Source: Escherichia coli (lineage in GTDB: Bacteria; Pseudomonadota; Gammaproteobacteria; Enterobacterales; Enterobacteriaceae). Taken from it: a stretch of 64,000 nucleotides of DNA. Positions 41,887 through 48,802 of this stretch are shown here, piece by piece. A model generated the notes under the pieces. That model was not told the origin of the DNA. It worked only from the letters and a program-made list of their open reading frames with translations, and made no database searches. Location of the stretch: NCBI RefSeq assembly GCF_003334335.1, contig NZ_QOWQ01000004.1; one strand, 5' to 3'. A program made the translations under genes and the position numbers. The first letter of the stretch is position 1, and each line of letters begins with the position of its first letter.

Positions 41887-42110
41887 AATTTATATTCCCG
41901 GGAATTCATCATGATTATCAAAACGTTAAAAATGAGTGCACGAAAGCGAAATTGATGAAACGTTCGCTCACTATTTACCAGGTAAATTTATGGGATTGTA
42001 GCGTAAAAAAAGACAATTTCGCAGTCTTGCGCCGCATTGATTAGTGCGTATGATAGCGTCACTGGAGTTGCGCTCTTACCCTTATAGCCATTAACCCCAG
42101 GAATCCGCAC

Positions 42111-43154
42111 ATGCGTATTGAAGAAGATCTGAAGTTAGGTTTTAAAGACGTTCTCATCCGCCCTAAACGCTCCACTCTTAAAAGCCGTTCCGATGTTGAA
42201 CTGGAACGTCAATTCACCTTCAAACATTCAGGTCAGAGCTGGTCCGGCGTGCCGATTATCGCCGCAAATATGGACACCGTAGGCACATTTTCTATGGCCT
42301 CTGCGCTGGCTTCTTTTGATATTTTGACTGCTGTGCATAAACACTATTCTGTCGAAGAGTGGCAAGCGTTTATCAACAATTCTTCCGCTGATGTGCTGAA
42401 ACATGTGATGGTTTCTACCGGTACGTCTGATGCGGATTTCGAAAAAACTAAACAGATTCTCGACCTGAACCCGGCATTAAACTTCGTTTGTATTGACGTG
42501 GCGAATGGTTATTCCGAACACTTCGTGCAGTTCGTTGCGAAAGCGCGTGAAGCGTGGCCGACCAAAACCATTTGTGCTGGTAACGTAGTGACTGGTGAAA
42601 TGTGTGAGGAGCTTATCCTCTCAGGTGCCGATATCGTTAAAGTTGGCATTGGCCCAGGTTCTGTTTGTACAACTCGCGTCAAAACAGGCGTCGGTTATCC
42701 GCAACTTTCTGCGGTAATCGAATGTGCCGATGCTGCGCACGGTCTGGGCGGAATGATCGTCAGCGATGGTGGCTGCACCACGCCGGGCGATGTGGCGAAA
42801 GCCTTTGGCGGCGGTGCCGATTTCGTCATGCTTGGCGGCATGCTGGCGGGCCACGAAGAGAGCGGCGGTCGCATCGTTGAGGAGAACGGCGAGAAATTTA
42901 TGCTGTTCTACGGCATGAGCTCCGAGTCTGCGATGAAACGTCACGTTGGCGGCGTTGCGGAATATCGCGCAGCAGAAGGTAAAACCGTTAAGCTGCCGCT
43001 GCGAGGCCCGGTTGAAAATACCGCGCGAGATATTTTGGGCGGCCTGCGTTCAGCTTGTACATACGTTGGGGCTTCACGCCTGAAAGAGCTGACCAAGCGC
43101 ACCACGTTTATTCGTGTGCAGGAACAAGAAAACCGCATCTTCAACAACCTGTAA
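42111..43154 (+). CDS. guaC: GMP reductase
   Basis: 347-aa ORF; IMPDH/GMP reductase TIM barrel with catalytic Cys loop ([11 protein letters not shown]). Confidence 0.95.
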
Positions 43155-43160
43155 TCTCCC

Positions 43161-43190
43161 AACGCTGGCGTGGAGCAACACGCCAGCGTT
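43161..43190. terminator. perfect 12-bp-stem hairpin between convergent guaC and hofC
   Basis: AACGCTGGCGTG-GAGCAA-CACGCCAGCGTT; no T-run, so classification as terminator is tentative. Confidence 0.4.
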
Positions 43191-44391
43191 ATCCCATCCC
43201 ACTCATCGCATCGCCTAAATGGAAAATTGGCAGATACATTGCCACCACCAGCGTACCAATAATTCCTCCCGTTATGATCAGCAACGCCGGTTCCAGTAAG
43301 GCTGCGAGGTTATCCGCCAGCGCCATTGTGTTTTCCCGATGATGATGGGCGAGGTTGTCTAACATGAGATCCAGAGAGCCGGATGCCTCTCCTGTTCTCA
43401 CTAATTGCAAACAGAGCGGGCTAAACTCACCGGTATTTTTTAGCGCCAGCCAGATGGGTTGACCGTTACTGATATCGTGCTGGATTTGTGTCAGAAGTTG
43501 CACCCAGTACGGGCAGCGCATTGTTTCTCTGACGCTCTCTACGCCCTGTAAAAAAGTAATGCCTGCACTTTGTGTCAGCGCCAGAATCGTAAAGATCTGC
43601 GTGAGTTTTTGTCCCCGCATCAGTGAACCCATAATCGGGATGCGTAACAGCAATTTCTGCCGCACTATAAGCCAGGTCGGTCGGCGCATCAGCAACTTAT
43701 TGGCTATCGCCAGCAGAAAGCCGAACAACACCAGCAGCCAGCTCCATTCGCCACTAAAGTCTGCCAGCGTCATGATCCCCTGCGTTAGTGCCGGTAGTGG
43801 GGTGTTGAAGGTCTTATAGATAGCGGCAAACTCCGGCAGAACAAAATGCAGCATTGCCACAACCACCATGATTGCCATCGCTAAAATGATGATGGGATAA
43901 CGTAACGCTGATTTCACTTTGTCGGTCAACTGACGCTGGGCTTTTTGCTGACGCGCCAGTTCAAAGCAGCATTCATCCAGCTTACCGGTCAGTTCACCCG
44001 TGCGGATCATCGCCTGATAGAGCGGCGGAAATACCTCTGACCAGGGTAATAAGGCATTGGAAAAAGCAATGCCCTGTTCGAGATCGTGCGCCAGCGATTG
44101 CAGCAACGCTTGCCATTGCTTACTGGGATGCTGTTCCGCCAGCAGAGCCAGCCCTTCAGAAAGCGTTAACCCTGCTTTGAGTAGCGTCGCCAGTTGATGA
44201 ATGACTTCCGCGCTTTTATCTCCTCGCCACTGCGCAGAATTGATGGCGATTCGCTTCAGGCTTAGTGGGGTAACCATCTGTTGCTGTAGTGCCATAAGCA
44301 GTAAAGTACGGCTCTCTGCCCATAGCATCCCATCTTGCGCATTGCCGTCGCCGGTTATGCCATGCCAGCGCCAGAGTTGCTTACTCGCCAT
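43189..44391 (-). CDS. hofC: type IV pilus assembly inner-membrane platform protein (GspF/PilC family)
   Basis: 400-aa ORF, duplicated GspF domain with TM helices; downstream of hofB. Confidence 0.85.
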   Translation of the reverse strand: MASKQLWRWHGITGDGNAQDGMLWAESRTLLLMALQQQMVTPLSLKRIAINSAQWRGDKSAEVIHQLATLLKAGLTLSEGLALLAEQHPSKQWQALLQSLAHDLEQGIAFSNALLPWSEVFPPLYQAMIRTGELTGKLDECCFELARQQKAQRQLTDKVKSALRYPIIILAMAIMVVVAMLHFVLPEFAAIYKTFNTPLPALTQGIMTLADFSGEWSWLLVLFGFLLAIANKLLMRRPTWLIVRQKLLLRIPIMGSLMRGQKLTQIFTILALTQSAGITFLQGVESVRETMRCPYWVQLLTQIQHDISNGQPIWLALKNTGEFSPLCLQLVRTGEASGSLDLMLDNLAHHHRENTMALADNLAALLEPALLIITGGIIGTLVVAMYLPIFHLGDAMSGMG

Positions 44392-45766
44392 GCGGCATCC
44401 CCAGTACGCGGATTAACTCTTCAAAGGTGGTTAAGCCTTGCTCTACGGCCAGGCAGCCGTTTTCAAAAAGCGTACGCATACCCGCCTGTCGTGCGTGCGT
44501 TTCCAGCGATTCAACGTCGGTATTAGCGGAAATAAGCTGACGAATGACCGGCGTTATGGGCAGAACTTCAAATAAGGCCGTACGACCATAAAAACCGTGG
44601 TAGCAATGTACACAACCGGGTGCCTGCCAGTGGGGCAGCGGCGATGGCCATACATTGTCTGGAATGTGGATGGGCTCCCCTTGCTGCCGGCGACAATGTG
44701 GGCAAAGTTTGCGTACCAGACGCTGGGCTATTACCAGCGTAAGCGCCGATGATAGCATCCAGCGGGCGACCCCCATTTGCTGTAAACGTACCAGCGTTTC
44801 GCAGGTGGAATTAGTGTGTAGGGTAGACAACACCAGGTGACCAGTTTGCGCCGCTTTAATAGCGATCTCTGCTGTTTCGCCATCGCGGATCTCTCCGATC
44901 ATGATGACGTCAGGATCCTGGCGCAATAACGCACGCAAAACGCCCTGAAAGGTGAGTCCGGCACGCGGATGGATTTGCGTCTGGTTTAGTCCGGCTATGG
45001 GGATCTCAACTGGATCTTCGACGCTACAAATATTAATGTCAGCGGTATTCAGCTTTTGCAGGGCACTATAAAGCGTGACCGTTTTGCCGCTGCCGGTAGG
45101 GCCAGTTACCAGCACCAGTCCCTGTGGTTGTTGCAAGGCATGAGCAAAGTCCGCCAGTTGTAACGGCTGCATTCCAAGCGTGTTGACATCCAGTGCCTGA
45201 CCCACCTGCTGTAACAACCTTAATACCACCTTTTCACCACCCCGACATGGTAAGGTCGCAATACGAAATGAGACGGCGTTTCCTGCCAGTTCGACAGTGA
45301 ATTGCCCGTCCTGCGGCAGGCGATGTTCCGCAATATCCAGGTTTCCCAGCACTTTTAATCTGGCGGTTAATGCGACTCCGGCATCCGGTGAAACATCCGG
45401 TAAAGGATGCAATACGCCGTCGATACGCAAGCGGATGCGGTAGGCATTGTCCGCTGGTTCGATATGAATATCAGACGCGCGTTGTTCCAGCGCAGATTGT
45501 AACGTTCGAGTTAGCAACTCTGCTTTGGGCTGATGCTTCTCCTGAACAGCTACGGGCAATGTCTGTTGTGTGCGACTGGCGTGACCTTCCATTTGTTGGC
45601 GCGTCCAGCAGGTGATCTCAATACGTTTGGTGGTAGCGAAATGCAATGCGTCCAGTAGCTCATGCGAAGGTGCATCGACTACCGCAACATGAACCACCTC
45701 TTCGCTGGCATCCAGCAAGACTCCATGATAACGCAGACACAGGGCAGTGAGCTGTGGAATATTCAT
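44381..45766 (-). CDS. hofB: type IV pilus assembly ATPase (GspE/PilB family)
   Basis: 461-aa ORF; Walker A GPTGSGKT; tetracysteine motif (CPHC...CVHC). Confidence 0.9.
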   Translation of the reverse strand: MNIPQLTALCLRYHGVLLDASEEVVHVAVVDAPSHELLDALHFATTKRIEITCWTRQQMEGHASRTQQTLPVAVQEKHQPKAELLTRTLQSALEQRASDIHIEPADNAYRIRLRIDGVLHPLPDVSPDAGVALTARLKVLGNLDIAEHRLPQDGQFTVELAGNAVSFRIATLPCRGGEKVVLRLLQQVGQALDVNTLGMQPLQLADFAHALQQPQGLVLVTGPTGSGKTVTLYSALQKLNTADINICSVEDPVEIPIAGLNQTQIHPRAGLTFQGVLRALLRQDPDVIMIGEIRDGETAEIAIKAAQTGHLVLSTLHTNSTCETLVRLQQMGVARWMLSSALTLVIAQRLVRKLCPHCRRQQGEPIHIPDNVWPSPLPHWQAPGCVHCYHGFYGRTALFEVLPITPVIRQLISANTDVESLETHARQAGMRTLFENGCLAVEQGLTTFEELIRVLGMPHGE

Positions 45767-45775
45767 TGCCGCTCC

Positions 45776-46216
45776 TTAGTTGGCGTCATCAAAGCGGAAG
45801 ACATCTTCGCAGGCTTGCTGCAATGCGCTGTCACTTTGAATATTGCAGTTGCGCGTCCAGCCGGTGACGCCGTTTGCGTTATCCCAACCCGGTGTCATGA
45901 CGACGCTTAGCCCATTGAGACTTTCTTGCCCGGTCAGCGACACCACGCCCTTTGCCACACTCATGGCTGAAACATAGCGGGTGGTGGTAGGCGAGGGAAT
46001 GCCATTGCTGCCACCGTCGCAGGTATCTAATCCACCATGTTCCAGCGCGCACAACTCTACGGCGGTACGGTAAGGCACAAAGGTTTGTAGCATGTCGGTG
46101 AGTGCGGCTTTGCGCAGGTAGTTTTGATAAGCGGGAATACCAATGGCGCTTAAAATGGCAATGATGCCAATAACCACCATCAGTTCGATAAGTGTAAAAC
46201 CGCGTTGCTTGTCCAT
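45776..46216 (-). CDS. ppdD: type IV prepilin
   Basis: 146-aa ORF; N-terminal MDKQRGFTLIELMVVIGIIAILSAIG class III signal with Gly-Phe cleavage site and Glu+5. Confidence 0.9.
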   Translation of the reverse strand: MDKQRGFTLIELMVVIGIIAILSAIGIPAYQNYLRKAALTDMLQTFVPYRTAVELCALEHGGLDTCDGGSNGIPSPTTTRYVSAMSVAKGVVSLTGQESLNGLSVVMTPGWDNANGVTGWTRNCNIQSDSALQQACEDVFRFDDAN

Positions 46217-46418
46217 CTGTTTCGCTCCTTGATTTGGTTGGCGCTACTTTGGCAAACGCCATCAGCACAGGCGAGGGGCAAAAAACGAAACGGGAAAGCA
46301 GATTCCGAGGTTTTTTATTTCGTTGCAGCGAAAGACAAGAAATTTGCGAGGCGTTACGAAGAAAGTTGGGGAAGGGGAGATTATCCGCCCGCGATGGAGC
46401 GGATAAATCTGTCAACTA

Positions 46419-47372
<954 letters not shown>

Positions 47373-47399
47373 TTAGCACCACATATAAGGAGATCCTGC

Positions 47400-47951
47400 A
47401 TGTTGTTAGAACAGGGGTGGCTGGTTGGCGCGCGCCGCGTTCCCTCACCACATTACGATTGCCGCCCGGATGACGAAACACCCACCCTGCTGGTGGTGCA
47501 CAATATTAGCCTGCCGCCAGGCGAGTTTGGCGGTCCGTGGATCGACGCATTATTCACTGGAACTATTGATCCGCAGGCACATCCTTTCTTTGCTGAGATC
47601 GCCCATTTGCGCGTCTCCGCTCACTGTTTGATTCGCCGTGATGGTGAAATAGTCCAGTATGTTCCTTTCGATAAACGTGCATGGCATGCGGGAGTCTCTC
47701 AGTATCAGGGGCGCGAACGCTGCAATGATTTTTCTATTGGGATTGAGCTTGAAGGCACCGATACGCTGGCGTATACCGATGCGCAGTATCAACAGCTTGC
47801 GGCGGTTACGCGGGCACTGATTGATTGCTATCCGGATATCGCTAAAAACATGACGGGCCATTGTGATATTGCGCCGGATCGGAAAACCGATCCCGGTCCT
47901 GCATTTGATTGGGCACGGTTTCGTGTGCTGGTCAGCAAGGAGACAACATGA
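47400..47951 (+). CDS. ampD: 1,6-anhydro-N-acetylmuramyl-L-alanine amidase
   Basis: 183-aa ORF; amidase_2/PGRP fold. Confidence 0.9.
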
Positions 47952-48802
47952 CGCTATTTACAACCTTACTGGTGTTAATTTTCGAGCGCCTGTTTAAGTT
48001 GGGCGAGCACTGGCAGCTTGATCATCGTCTTGAAGCGTTCTTTCGGCGGGTGAAACATTTTTCTCTCGGGCGCACGTTAGGCATGACCATTATTGCGATG
48101 GGCGTGACTTTTTTACTGTTACGCGCATTGCAGGGAGTATTGTTCAACGTTCCCACGCTACTGGTGTGGCTGCTGATTGGTTTGCTGTGTATTGGCGCAG
48201 GTAAAGTTCGTCTTCATTATCATGCTTATCTGACAGCTGCTTCACGTAATGATAGCCATGCCCGTGCCACGATGGCTGGCGAACTCACCATGATTCACGG
48301 CGTCCCGGCAGGCTGCGACGAACGTGAGTATTTGCGTGAGCTGCAAAATGCATTGCTGTGGATTAACTTTCGTTTTTATCTTGCACCGCTGTTCTGGCTG
48401 ATTGTGGGGGGAACCTGGGGACCCGTTACGCTGATGGGGTATGCGTTTTTGCGTGCATGGCAATACTGGCTGGCGCGATATCAGACGCCGCATCATCGTT
48501 TACAGTCCGGCATTGATGCCGTGCTTCATGTACTGGATTGGGTGCCGGTTCGTCTTGCGGGTGTGGTATATGCCTTGATCGGTCATGGTGAGAAAGCGTT
48601 ACCGGCCTGGTTTGCTTCGCTGGGTGATTTCCATACTTCGCAGTATCAGGTGTTAACGCGTCTGGCGCAGTTCTCTCTGGCGCGTGAACCGCATGTCGAT
48701 AAGGTGGAGACGCCGAAGGCAGCGGTTTCAATGGCGAAGAAAACCTCGTTCGTAGTCGTGGTGGTGATTGCACTACTGACGATTTACGGGGCGTTGGTGT
48801 AA
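47948..48802 (+). CDS. ampE: inner membrane protein AmpE
   Basis: ORF 47909..48802 trimmed to [15 protein letters not shown]; ATGA overlap with ampD. Confidence 0.85.

Follow-up and report, generated by a model that had tools for sequence, protein, structure and literature searches.

The window analyzed here, a 64,000-nucleotide stretch of Escherichia coli DNA, corresponds to positions 71334 to 135333 of MG1655 in an alignment with eight SNPs, all of them outside the region between 43189 and 46418, which is identical in the two sequences. This region harbors the ppdD-hofB-hofC locus of E. coli K-12 (Table 1). The initial annotation had described three codirectional minus-strand genes between nadC and guaC, with an overlap between hofB and hofC. 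Its coordinates were exact, in agreement with the list of open reading frames (ORFs), and the three ORFs precisely match RefSeq CDS b0106 to b0108. None of them contains a frameshift or an internal stop, either of which would have refuted the initial annotation. The flanking genes are nadC (minus strand, from 46419 onward) and the convergent guaC (plus strand, 42111 to 43154). All three proteins exceed the cut-offs of NCBIfam equivalog models, namely, PRK10574 for PpdD (269 bits versus 138), PRK10436 for HofB (823 bits versus 617), and PRK10573 for HofC (661 bits versus 401), and thus the locus is a real gene cluster rather than a chance pattern of ORFs.

The start of hofB lies 9 nt from the end of ppdD, with a Shine-Dalgarno sequence, AAGGAG, that overlaps the ppdD stop codon. 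The overlap of hofB and hofC was confirmed, and four further E. coli strains are annotated with an identical arrangement; it implies that translation of the two genes is coupled. RNA folding predicted a hairpin at each end of the locus. The one between the convergent hofC and guaC genes is probably a bidirectional terminator common to both, and the one just past the nadC stop codon likely represents the 3′ end or terminator of nadC and delimits the control region of ppdD on its upstream side. In other genera a hairpin is found directly upstream of the CRP-S site, in some cases with a T-run. An Rfam scan of positions 42000 to 48000 returned no match at an E value of 1 or lower. The GC content of 0.51 to 0.55 across the locus is indistinguishable from that of the flanks and thus does not point to an island acquired by horizontal transfer and silenced by H-NS. 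The locus is the ordinary, already described ppdD-hofB-hofC operon: its genes, their products, the structure of the pilus, and the control by CRP and Sxy are all published, and nothing in them is new as a finding.

Table 1. Features of the ppdD-hofB-hofC locus (positions in the window)
Feature	Position	Strand	Description
Hairpin between convergent hofC and guaC	43160..43191	unspecified	12-13 bp, GC-rich, about -23 kcal/mol on either strand (predicted fold)
hofC (b0106)	43189..44391	-	400 aa, PilC/GspF-type inner-membrane platform protein
hofB stop/hofC start overlap	44381..44391	-	11 nt, ATGGCGAGTAA
hofB (b0107)	44381..45766	-	461 aa, PilB/GspE-superfamily assembly ATPase
ppdD (b0108)	45776..46216	-	146 aa, type IVa major prepilin
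Shine-Dalgarno AAGGAG of ppdD	46225..46230	-	conserved block
TGcCAAAGT	46246..46254	-	conserved block; resembles extended -10 (TGn + xAxxxT)
TTTTTG..CTCGCC blocks	46270..46284	-	conserved, 54 to 68 nt upstream of ATG
CTGCAA box	46323..46328	-	16 nt downstream of CRP-S site; kept in at least 70% of 24 taxa
CRP-S site (candidate placement)	46345..46360	-	TTCGT-aacgcc-TCGCA, C at position 6, G at 17
Hairpin just past nadC stop	46378..46410	-	-16 kcal/mol, without T-run (predicted fold)

The sequence motifs quoted in the initial annotation, i.e., the PpdD N terminus and the GPTGSGKT and tetracysteine motifs of HofB, are all present. PpdD starts with a 6-residue leader, MDKQRG, followed by FTLIELMVVIGIIAIL, and its mature chain of 140 aa begins with FTLIELMVV. 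A short basic leader ending in Gly, with Phe at +1 and Glu at +5, together with matches to TIGR02532 and Pfam N_methyl, identifies a class III signal peptide. The label "class III prepilin" given earlier is appropriate for this signal peptide but not for the protein, which is a type IVa prepilin according to its match to Pfam Pilin, the length of its mature chain, and its C-terminal Cys pair; its Cys residues are at mature positions 50, 60, 118, and 130, which group as 50/60 and 118/130. The PDB entries 6gv9, a pilus structure, and 6gms, a monomer, are PpdD itself, and the chain of the cryo-EM pilus structure, 6gv9, was matched with an E value of 3e-91. A processed, 15-kDa form of PpdD has been detected by western blotting (PMC3330819). 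The identity of PpdD to its Citrobacter and Pseudocitrobacter orthologs is 88 to 92%, compared with 57 to 77% for HofB and HofC, showing that the pilin evolves more slowly than its motor and its platform.

HofB has the motifs of an assembly ATPase, with the Walker A box GPTGSGKT at residue 222, the Asp box VEDPVE at 249, the Walker B box DPDVIMIGEIRD at 284, the His box TGHLVLSTLHTN at 308, and a tetracysteine zinc-binding motif composed of CPHC at 355 and CVHC at 385. Its Pfam matches are T2SSE (residues 75 to 453, E = 1e-146) and a partial MshEN domain (residues 8 to 69, E = 3e-5). PRK10436, its own enterobacterial model, is the only equivalog whose cut-off it passes: HofB scored 485.8 bits against the PilB model TIGR02538 (cut-off, 675.65) and 457.6 bits against the GspE model TIGR02533 (cut-off, 630.25). 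Its N terminus is shortened, since its alignment with the PilB profile begins only at position 160, and it lacks the greater part of PilB's N-terminal region. HofB is thus a separate clade of the superfamily that works like PilB, and its best solved relatives are the PilB structures 5zfr and 5tsg. HofC contains the T2SSF domain twice (residues 64 to 186 and 269 to 388) and three hydrophobic segments, consistent with three transmembrane segments, whose 19-mers start at about residues 167, 217, and 369. It falls below the equivalog cut-offs of both GspF and PilC, and its best solved relative is PilC (3jc8).

The designation of the two proteins as GspE and GspF types thus holds at the level of the superfamily, but by score they are marginally closer to PilB and PilC. 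PGAP likewise calls HofB "type II secretion system protein GspE," and the Klebsiella Pul secreton can assemble PpdD (Sauvonnet et al. 2000, as cited in later work). We therefore considered whether HofB and HofC are components of type II secretion, with PpdD as a pseudopilin. The T2SSE and T2SSF superfamilies and a prepilin-type N terminus are indeed shared with GspE, GspF, and GspG. However, the higher score of HofB with PilB than with GspE, the failure to pass either equivalog cut-off, and the identity of the top solved relatives, PilB and PilC, speak against this assignment, as does the genuine type IV pilus that PpdD makes (6gv9). Furthermore, K-12 carries a separate, complete gspC-O operon elsewhere, with its own GspE, GspF, and GspG. 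A role in type II secretion is accordingly most improbable.

The presence of a pilin, a motor, and a platform does not amount to a type IVa system. Within the window the secretin, the PilMNOP alignment complex, the minor pilins, and the prepilin peptidase are absent; the lack of a secretin and a prepilin peptidase had been noted initially and is borne out by the MG1655 annotation of the whole window, which lists neither. The K-12 genome as a whole contains the complete set, with hofMNOPQ, ppdAB-ygdB-ppdC, and gspO at other loci, and the same 13 genes have served to produce PpdD pili in E. coli (bioRxiv 10.1101/856302). What the window contains is therefore a submodule of the pilus system rather than the whole. 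This module is complete as an operon, yet it represents about a quarter of the machine.

The operon had been described as silent under laboratory conditions, in agreement with the literature: earlier efforts to detect a ppdD transcript failed (PMC1635313), and PpdD was not produced by any of 72 cultured ECOR strains (PMC3330819). A consensus scan for sigma-70 promoters between 43000 and 46600 found no site versus 2.9 expected, which fits an activator-dependent promoter. Sxy induces ppdD 90-fold in a manner that requires crp and cAMP, since induction is abolished in crp and cyaA backgrounds, and CRP shifts a DNA fragment corresponding to positions 46300 to 46430 (PMC1635313). Upstream of ppdD, this fragment contains the only site with at least 8 of 10 matches to the CRP motif. 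It has the signature of the CRP-S regulon, i.e., C6 and G17, an asymmetric sequence, and a location upstream of the first gene, with its center 136.5 nt from the ppdD ATG and the strong half-site, TGCGA, on the promoter-proximal side. In 19 of 24 taxa, a site with at least 8 matches occupies this position, compared with 0.2 expected from shuffled sequences (maximum, 2), and the site is unchanged in five divergent E. coli strains. Taken by itself, the 16-mer motif shows no enrichment across the window (36 matches with up to two mismatches, versus 46 expected), and the candidate placement of the CRP-S site is based on the best motif match inside the gel shift fragment and on its conservation. 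CRP-S sites are activated in a class I-like manner, and a surface of CRP that interacts with Sxy was found with an sxy promoter reporter (PMC6728893).

Silence in culture could mark the operon as a relic of evolution that is no longer used and has by chance stayed intact in K-12 while its genes drift toward pseudogenes. The lack of expression under standard conditions in K-12 and in the ECOR strains is compatible with this explanation, as are inactivating lesions in sporadic strains, namely, the nonsense mutation W380* in hofB or an insertion of IS903B into ppdD. However, 5425 of the 5426 complete E. coli genomes have retained the locus. The gene order ampD/nadC-ppdD-hofB-hofC/guaC/coaE was found in 23 other Enterobacterales with full-length ORFs, including seven other genera. 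Relative to E. albertii, dN/dS amounts to 0.042 for ppdD, 0.076 for hofB, and 0.060 for hofC; these values of 0.04 to 0.08 equal those of nadC, ampD, and coaE, and the range for the neighboring housekeeping genes is 0.011 to 0.075. Within E. coli, dN/dS is 0.04 to 0.30. Purifying selection on the operon is thus as strong as on its housekeeping neighbors, and the operon is silent but not decaying. The conservation of the regulatory site across Enterobacterales and the observation that Sxy leads to processed PpdD and to hofQ-dependent DNA uptake (PMC3330819) also contradict disuse. The notion of a relic has thus been largely refuted already, and we consider it exceedingly unlikely. The function of the pilus in K-12 is contested, and overexpression of Sxy causes DNA uptake but yields natural transformation only with the help of recombineering (PMC3330819).

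From the CRP-S site to the start codon of ppdD, a distance of approximately 130 bp, there are four further blocks, CTGCAA, TTTTTG, CTCGCC, and TGnCAnAGT, that are conserved at the DNA level across Enterobacterales and are partly common to the promoters of ppdA and hofM. According to the literature, conserved sequence beyond the CRP site itself has not been described for E. coli CRP-S promoters. RNAalifold detected no consensus structure in 15 orthologous ppdD leaders, with zero pairs, and the blocks are therefore no RNA element. In K-12, the promoters of ppdA, hofM, and smf have a yTGCAA box at the same offset from their CRP-S-like site, and the CTGCAA box may be a -35-like element or the binding site of a factor. 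A sequence similar to the TTTTTG..CTCGCC blocks, TTTTTTTCTCCTCGCT, occurs upstream of ppdA. An inverted repeat, TTTCG-N6-CGAAA, surrounds CTGCAA in K-12; it is not kept in other genera and is a coincidence of this lineage.

There are two candidates for the core promoter. The distal one combines TTGTCT (46333 to 46338) with TAAAAA (46312 to 46317), has counterparts at an equal offset in sxy, ppdA, and ycaI, and would put CRP at about -47.5. The TGcCAAAGT block is a candidate for a proximal core promoter, and 17 of the 24 taxa have the pattern TGn[CT]AnnnT at a distance of 33 to 47 nt upstream of the ATG; the best conserved of the -10-like elements, it would place CRP at about -114, unusually far for class I activation. 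We also considered a second, proximal CRP-like site at the conserved repeat CTGrAA-N7-TTCCC (46291 to 46306). Only two or three of the 24 taxa reach 7 of 10 positions of a relaxed pattern there, and the total of 38 matches is not above that in shuffled sequences (31 ± 5.5), and thus this candidate was rejected. Promoters for sigma-54, sigma-32, and sigma-E were dismissed from a reading by eye, as their spacing or invariant dinucleotides appeared not to fit. The conserved blocks might contain the binding site of a second factor or a second promoter and so provide a route for the natural signal to the pilus genes, which we regard as improbable but conceivable.

Altogether, the K-12 operon very probably encodes the pilin, motor, and platform core of the enterobacterial type IVa pilus, known as the competence or EHEC hemorrhagic coli pilus, gated by CRP-S and Sxy. 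Following the established model of type IV pili, the PpdD prepilin would enter the inner membrane, where the prepilin peptidase GspO, encoded elsewhere, would cut off the 6-residue leader after Gly-1. HofB, an ATPase of the PilB type that would form a hexamer docked on the polytopic platform HofC, would then drive the pilins from the membrane into a helical fiber, primed by the minor pilins PpdA, PpdB, YgdB, and PpdC; the fiber would pass through the alignment complex HofMNOP and the secretin HofQ, whose genes lie at other loci. The operon is off in ordinary culture because its promoter depends on CRP-cAMP at a weak, asymmetric CRP-S site that is productive only with the coactivator Sxy/TfoX, itself kept very low. 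The identities and intactness of the genes, the purifying selection, and the conserved CRP-S site are documented here or in the cited papers, as are the dependence on Sxy and CRP, the production of processed PpdD, and the assembly of pili from the 13 genes; we infer the exact transcription start and core promoter, the translational coupling, and the natural signal. The inducing signal had initially been called unclear. This no longer applies to the proximate regulators, but it does to the natural trigger that raises Sxy: as CRP-cAMP and Sxy act at the CRP-S site within the upstream region that had been singled out initially (46217 to 46418), the question shifts from what turns on ppdD to what turns on Sxy.

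The main natural role of the pilus might instead be adhesion and host colonization rather than DNA uptake, with induction in vivo perhaps not occurring via Sxy. EHEC O157:H7 assembles PpdD (HcpA) pili, called HCP, on minimal casein medium, and these mediate adherence, invasion, and cytokine induction (PMC2920817; cited in PMC2649431). Mutants of UPEC in hofQ show poor persistence in the kidney. Against this reading, UPEC displayed no defect of adherence in vitro. The high identity of the pilin to its Citrobacter and Pseudocitrobacter orthologs is unlike the pattern expected of an immune-exposed adhesin, and the promoter has a CRP-S site of the competence regulon that is kept in nonpathogens and plant-associated genera. 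We thus view a primary role in colonization as possible but rather doubtful.

The order of pilin, ATPase, and platform genes is the same as in pilABCD of Haemophilus influenzae and Vibrio cholerae and in pilA/pilBCD of Pseudomonas. The pilA-pilB-pilC operons of type IVa and competence pili share with ppdD-hofB-hofC a class III signal peptide with a short leader (G-1, F+1, E+5) and a tetracysteine ATPase, and Haemophilus shares the control via CRP-S and Sxy (PMC1635313). In contrast to the pilABCD operons, no peptidase gene follows hofC in E. coli, and GspO is borrowed from the gsp operon. Moreover, among the three E. coli proteins conservation is highest for the pilin rather than lowest. In EHEC the locus carries the name hcpA-hcpB-hcpC.

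The mapped promoter blocks may offer an approach to the natural condition that raises Sxy, of which the window alone gives no direct test. The locus is part of the dormant DNA uptake and pilus machinery of the best-studied bacterium, a colonization factor in EHEC and UPEC, and a chassis for engineered protein nanowires.

Upstream of the three genes of the ppdD-hofB-hofC module, and on their strand, lies nadC; downstream lies the convergent guaC. Both the list of ORFs and the sequence itself, read directly, gave exactly the coordinates of the initial annotation, with the three genes co-directional and free of internal stops and frameshifts, as described there. The reported overlap of hofB with hofC amounts to 11 nt (ATGGCGAGTAA), and a 9-nt gap lies between ppdD and hofB, with an AAGGAG ribosome-binding site overlapping the ppdD stop codon. 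The mechanical ORF of nadC (46419..47354) begins 14 codons ahead of the start given in the annotation, at 47312 (311 versus 297 aa), and the ppdD-nadC intergenic region measures 202 nt with either start. The convergent genes hofC and guaC have a strong hairpin of 12-13 bp between them (43160..43191, about -23 kcal/mol on both strands); this contains the hofC stop codon and has no T-run on either side.

Genes of the pilus module, conserved blocks upstream of ppdD, and other pilus loci of the K-12 chromosome
Feature	Position	Strand	Remarks
hofC	43189..44391	minus	400 aa; ORF listing and direct sequence reading
hofB	44381..45766	minus	461 aa; ORF listing and direct sequence reading
ppdD	45776..46216	minus	146 aa; ORF listing and direct sequence reading
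Shine-Dalgarno sequence of ppdD		minus	at least 70% of 24 taxa
TGcCAcAgT	46246-54	minus	at least 70% of 24 taxa; resembles an extended -10
CTCGCC	46270-75	minus	at least 70% of 24 taxa
TTTTTG	46279-84	minus	at least 70% of 24 taxa
CTGCAA	46323-28	minus	at least 70% of 24 taxa
ppdA-ppdB-ygdB-ppdC	2.96 Mb		K-12 chromosome
gspO	3.47 Mb		K-12 chromosome; end of gsp operon
hofMNOPQ	3.52 Mb		K-12 chromosome

The window is colinear with 71334..135333 of MG1655 (NC_000913.3), with 8 mismatches, none of which falls within 43189-46418, and is E. coli K-12. Because it shows eight single-base differences over 64 kb (at 246, 22242, 23141, 26593, 48754, 54859, 60629 and 62864), its source is a very close relative or sub-strain and not the reference sequence. 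The RefSeq coding sequences b0106 (hofC), b0107 (hofB) and b0108 (ppdD) coincide with the ORFs. The motifs quoted in the initial annotation were all found: PpdD has the prepilin N-terminus MDKQRG|FTLIELMVV, and HofB has, besides an Asp box, Walker B and a His box, the Walker A motif GPTGSGKT (residue 222) and two CxxC pairs (355 and 385). Each protein exceeds the cut-off of its own NCBIfam equivalog model by a wide margin, and Pfam assigns N_methyl and Pilin to PpdD, T2SSE and a partial MshEN to HofB, and two T2SSF repeats to HofC. PpdD itself is in the PDB (6gv9, cryo-EM pilus; 6gms, NMR monomer), and among solved structures PilB comes closest to HofB and PilC to HofC, with GspE and GspF marginally behind. 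HofB and HofC did not reach the PilB, GspE, PilC and GspF equivalog cut-offs; they form an enterobacterial clade of their own inside the superfamily. Compared with PilB and GspE, HofB is about 100 residues shorter at its N-terminus (region of residues 1-75): the PilB profile aligns to it from position 160 only, and its MshEN match spans model positions 24-86 alone, so that the opening portion normal for this domain is missing.

Annotation of MG1655 across all 64 kb, from yabI to speD, bears out the earlier statement that neither a secretin nor a prepilin peptidase is encoded in the window. Together with hofMNOPQ, with ppdA-ppdB-ygdB-ppdC and with gspO, which supply the rest of the machine from other places on the K-12 chromosome, ppdD-hofBC makes up a 13-gene set that a preprint citing earlier reconstitution reports to be enough for E. 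coli to assemble PpdD pili (bioRxiv 10.1101/856302). A recognizable Shine-Dalgarno sequence is absent just upstream of the ppdA ATG (K-12 ppdA promoter region, L089:3679-3700; CTGCCGGCATG), in keeping with the report that heterologous pilus production called for better ribosome-binding sites on hofB, hofM and ppdA.

Of 5426 complete E. coli genomes, 5425 carry the 3.4-kb segment, single-copy and chromosomal in nearly every case; among the 5438 places matched, 3 are on records designated plasmids, and a few E. coli genomes carry two copies. Another 23 Enterobacterales loci came from a scan of species-representative genomes. They belong to Escherichia, Citrobacter, Enterobacter, Leclercia, Kluyvera, Cedecea, Klebsiella, Serratia, Dickeya, Brenneria, Erwinia, Pantoea and Edwardsiella, and all have the neighborhood ampD/nadC-ppdD-hofB-hofC/guaC/coaE, except for a few flanking genes that are missing or displaced. 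The three genes are full length in all seven genomes examined codon by codon. Their dN/dS values versus E. albertii (ppdD, 0.042; hofB, 0.076; hofC, 0.060) lie in the same range as those of the adjoining ampD, nadC, guaC and coaE (0.011-0.075); within E. coli, dN/dS is 0.04-0.30. The GC content of the locus is indistinguishable from that of its flanks. Natural inactivation is sporadic: hofB carries W380* (TGG to TGA) in strain 22872 (L005:1582-2967), and in strain 74-2 (L007:3371-4450) an IS903B insertion in the 5' part of ppdD, close to 46180 of the window, separates the gene from its promoter and signal peptide. The locus is a core-genome operon under ordinary purifying selection, silent but not dead.

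PpdD is the slowest-evolving of the three proteins. When 45776..46216 was compared with 43189..45766 across loci L008-L028, identity to Citrobacter and Pseudocitrobacter was 88-92% for PpdD, 67-77% for HofB and 57-70% for HofC (92%, 67% and 57%, respectively, for Pseudocitrobacter), and the dN of ppdD is close to that of nadC. This reverses what is usual for the surface-exposed pilins of type IV pili. It suits a conserved and rarely exposed fibre more than an adhesin under antigenic selection.

The silence in culture noted initially agrees with published data, as no ECOR strain made PpdD (PMC3330819). The inducing signal had also been called unclear; this holds for the natural signal, there being no known natural inducer of sxy (PMC3330819), but the proximate regulators, CRP-cAMP and Sxy acting at a CRP-S site, are already known, and with this addition the initial observation is confirmed and its interpretation supported. 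The region 46217..46418, proposed there for probing, has been studied by Cameron and Redfield, who predicted a single CRP-S site for the ppdD promoter, saw a weak but specific CRP band-shift, and obtained 90-fold ppdD induction by plasmid-borne Sxy, with a full requirement for crp and cAMP (PMC1635313); their EMSA primers map to 46300..46430. Sxy induction yielded processed PpdD and hofQ-dependent DNA uptake (Sinha and Redfield, PMC3330819). Using the sxy promoter as reporter, Sondberg et al. described E. coli CRP-S sites as asymmetric (TGCGA-N6-TTCCA) and their activation as class I-like and AR1-dependent, CRP residues Q194 and L196 contacting Sxy (PMC6728893).

Upstream of ppdD, only TTCGT-aacgcc-TCGCA (46345..46360) agrees with TGCGA-N6-TCGCA at 8/10 or better. 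This candidate CRP-S site has the diagnostic C6 and G17, and its strong half-site is promoter-proximal, as in the sxy promoter. By itself the match is not significant in a motif scan of the 64-kb window. The position of the candidate site is strikingly conserved: 19 of 24 taxa have a site of at least 8/10 about 139-157 nt ahead of the ppdD start, whereas composition-matched shuffles average 0.2 such taxa and never exceed 2. None occurs anywhere downstream of that position, and the site is invariant in five divergent E. coli strains. The published sxy CRP-S site (TTCCG distal, TGCGA proximal) is also picked up by the scan. In the 3.6 kb, a simple search for the sigma-70 consensus found no promoter, which accords with strict dependence on an activator.

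Between the CRP-S site and the ppdD start, four blocks within 46246..46328 and the Shine-Dalgarno sequence are conserved in the alignment of 24 Enterobacterales upstream regions. Because RNAalifold found no structure in these regions and Rfam gave no match, the blocks are DNA-level elements. The ppdD layout is partly common to other K-12 Sxy-regulon promoters, among the regions compared for ppdA (L089:3679-3870), hofM (L088:4253-4450), smf (L094) and sxy (L091). In ppdA and hofM, a CRP-S-like site is followed by 6-7 nt, TGCAAC, 3 nt, CTGCAA and, after these tandem boxes, an A-rich one; in smf, TTGCAA stands at an equal offset. A yTGCAA box lies 15-16 nt past the CRP-S-like site in all three. 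A TAAAnn hexamer lies 28-34 nt past the site in ppdD, ppdA, sxy and ycaI. With the two candidate promoters, the CRP-S site would lie at about -47.5 or at about -114, neither of which is canonical. The blocks are thus far candidates for core promoter elements or for sites of another factor; as of a 2019 paper, no conservation outside the CRP site had been described at E. coli CRP-S promoters (PMC6728893). The ppdD-hofB-hofC locus is already known, and the conserved promoter blocks are its only potentially new lead.
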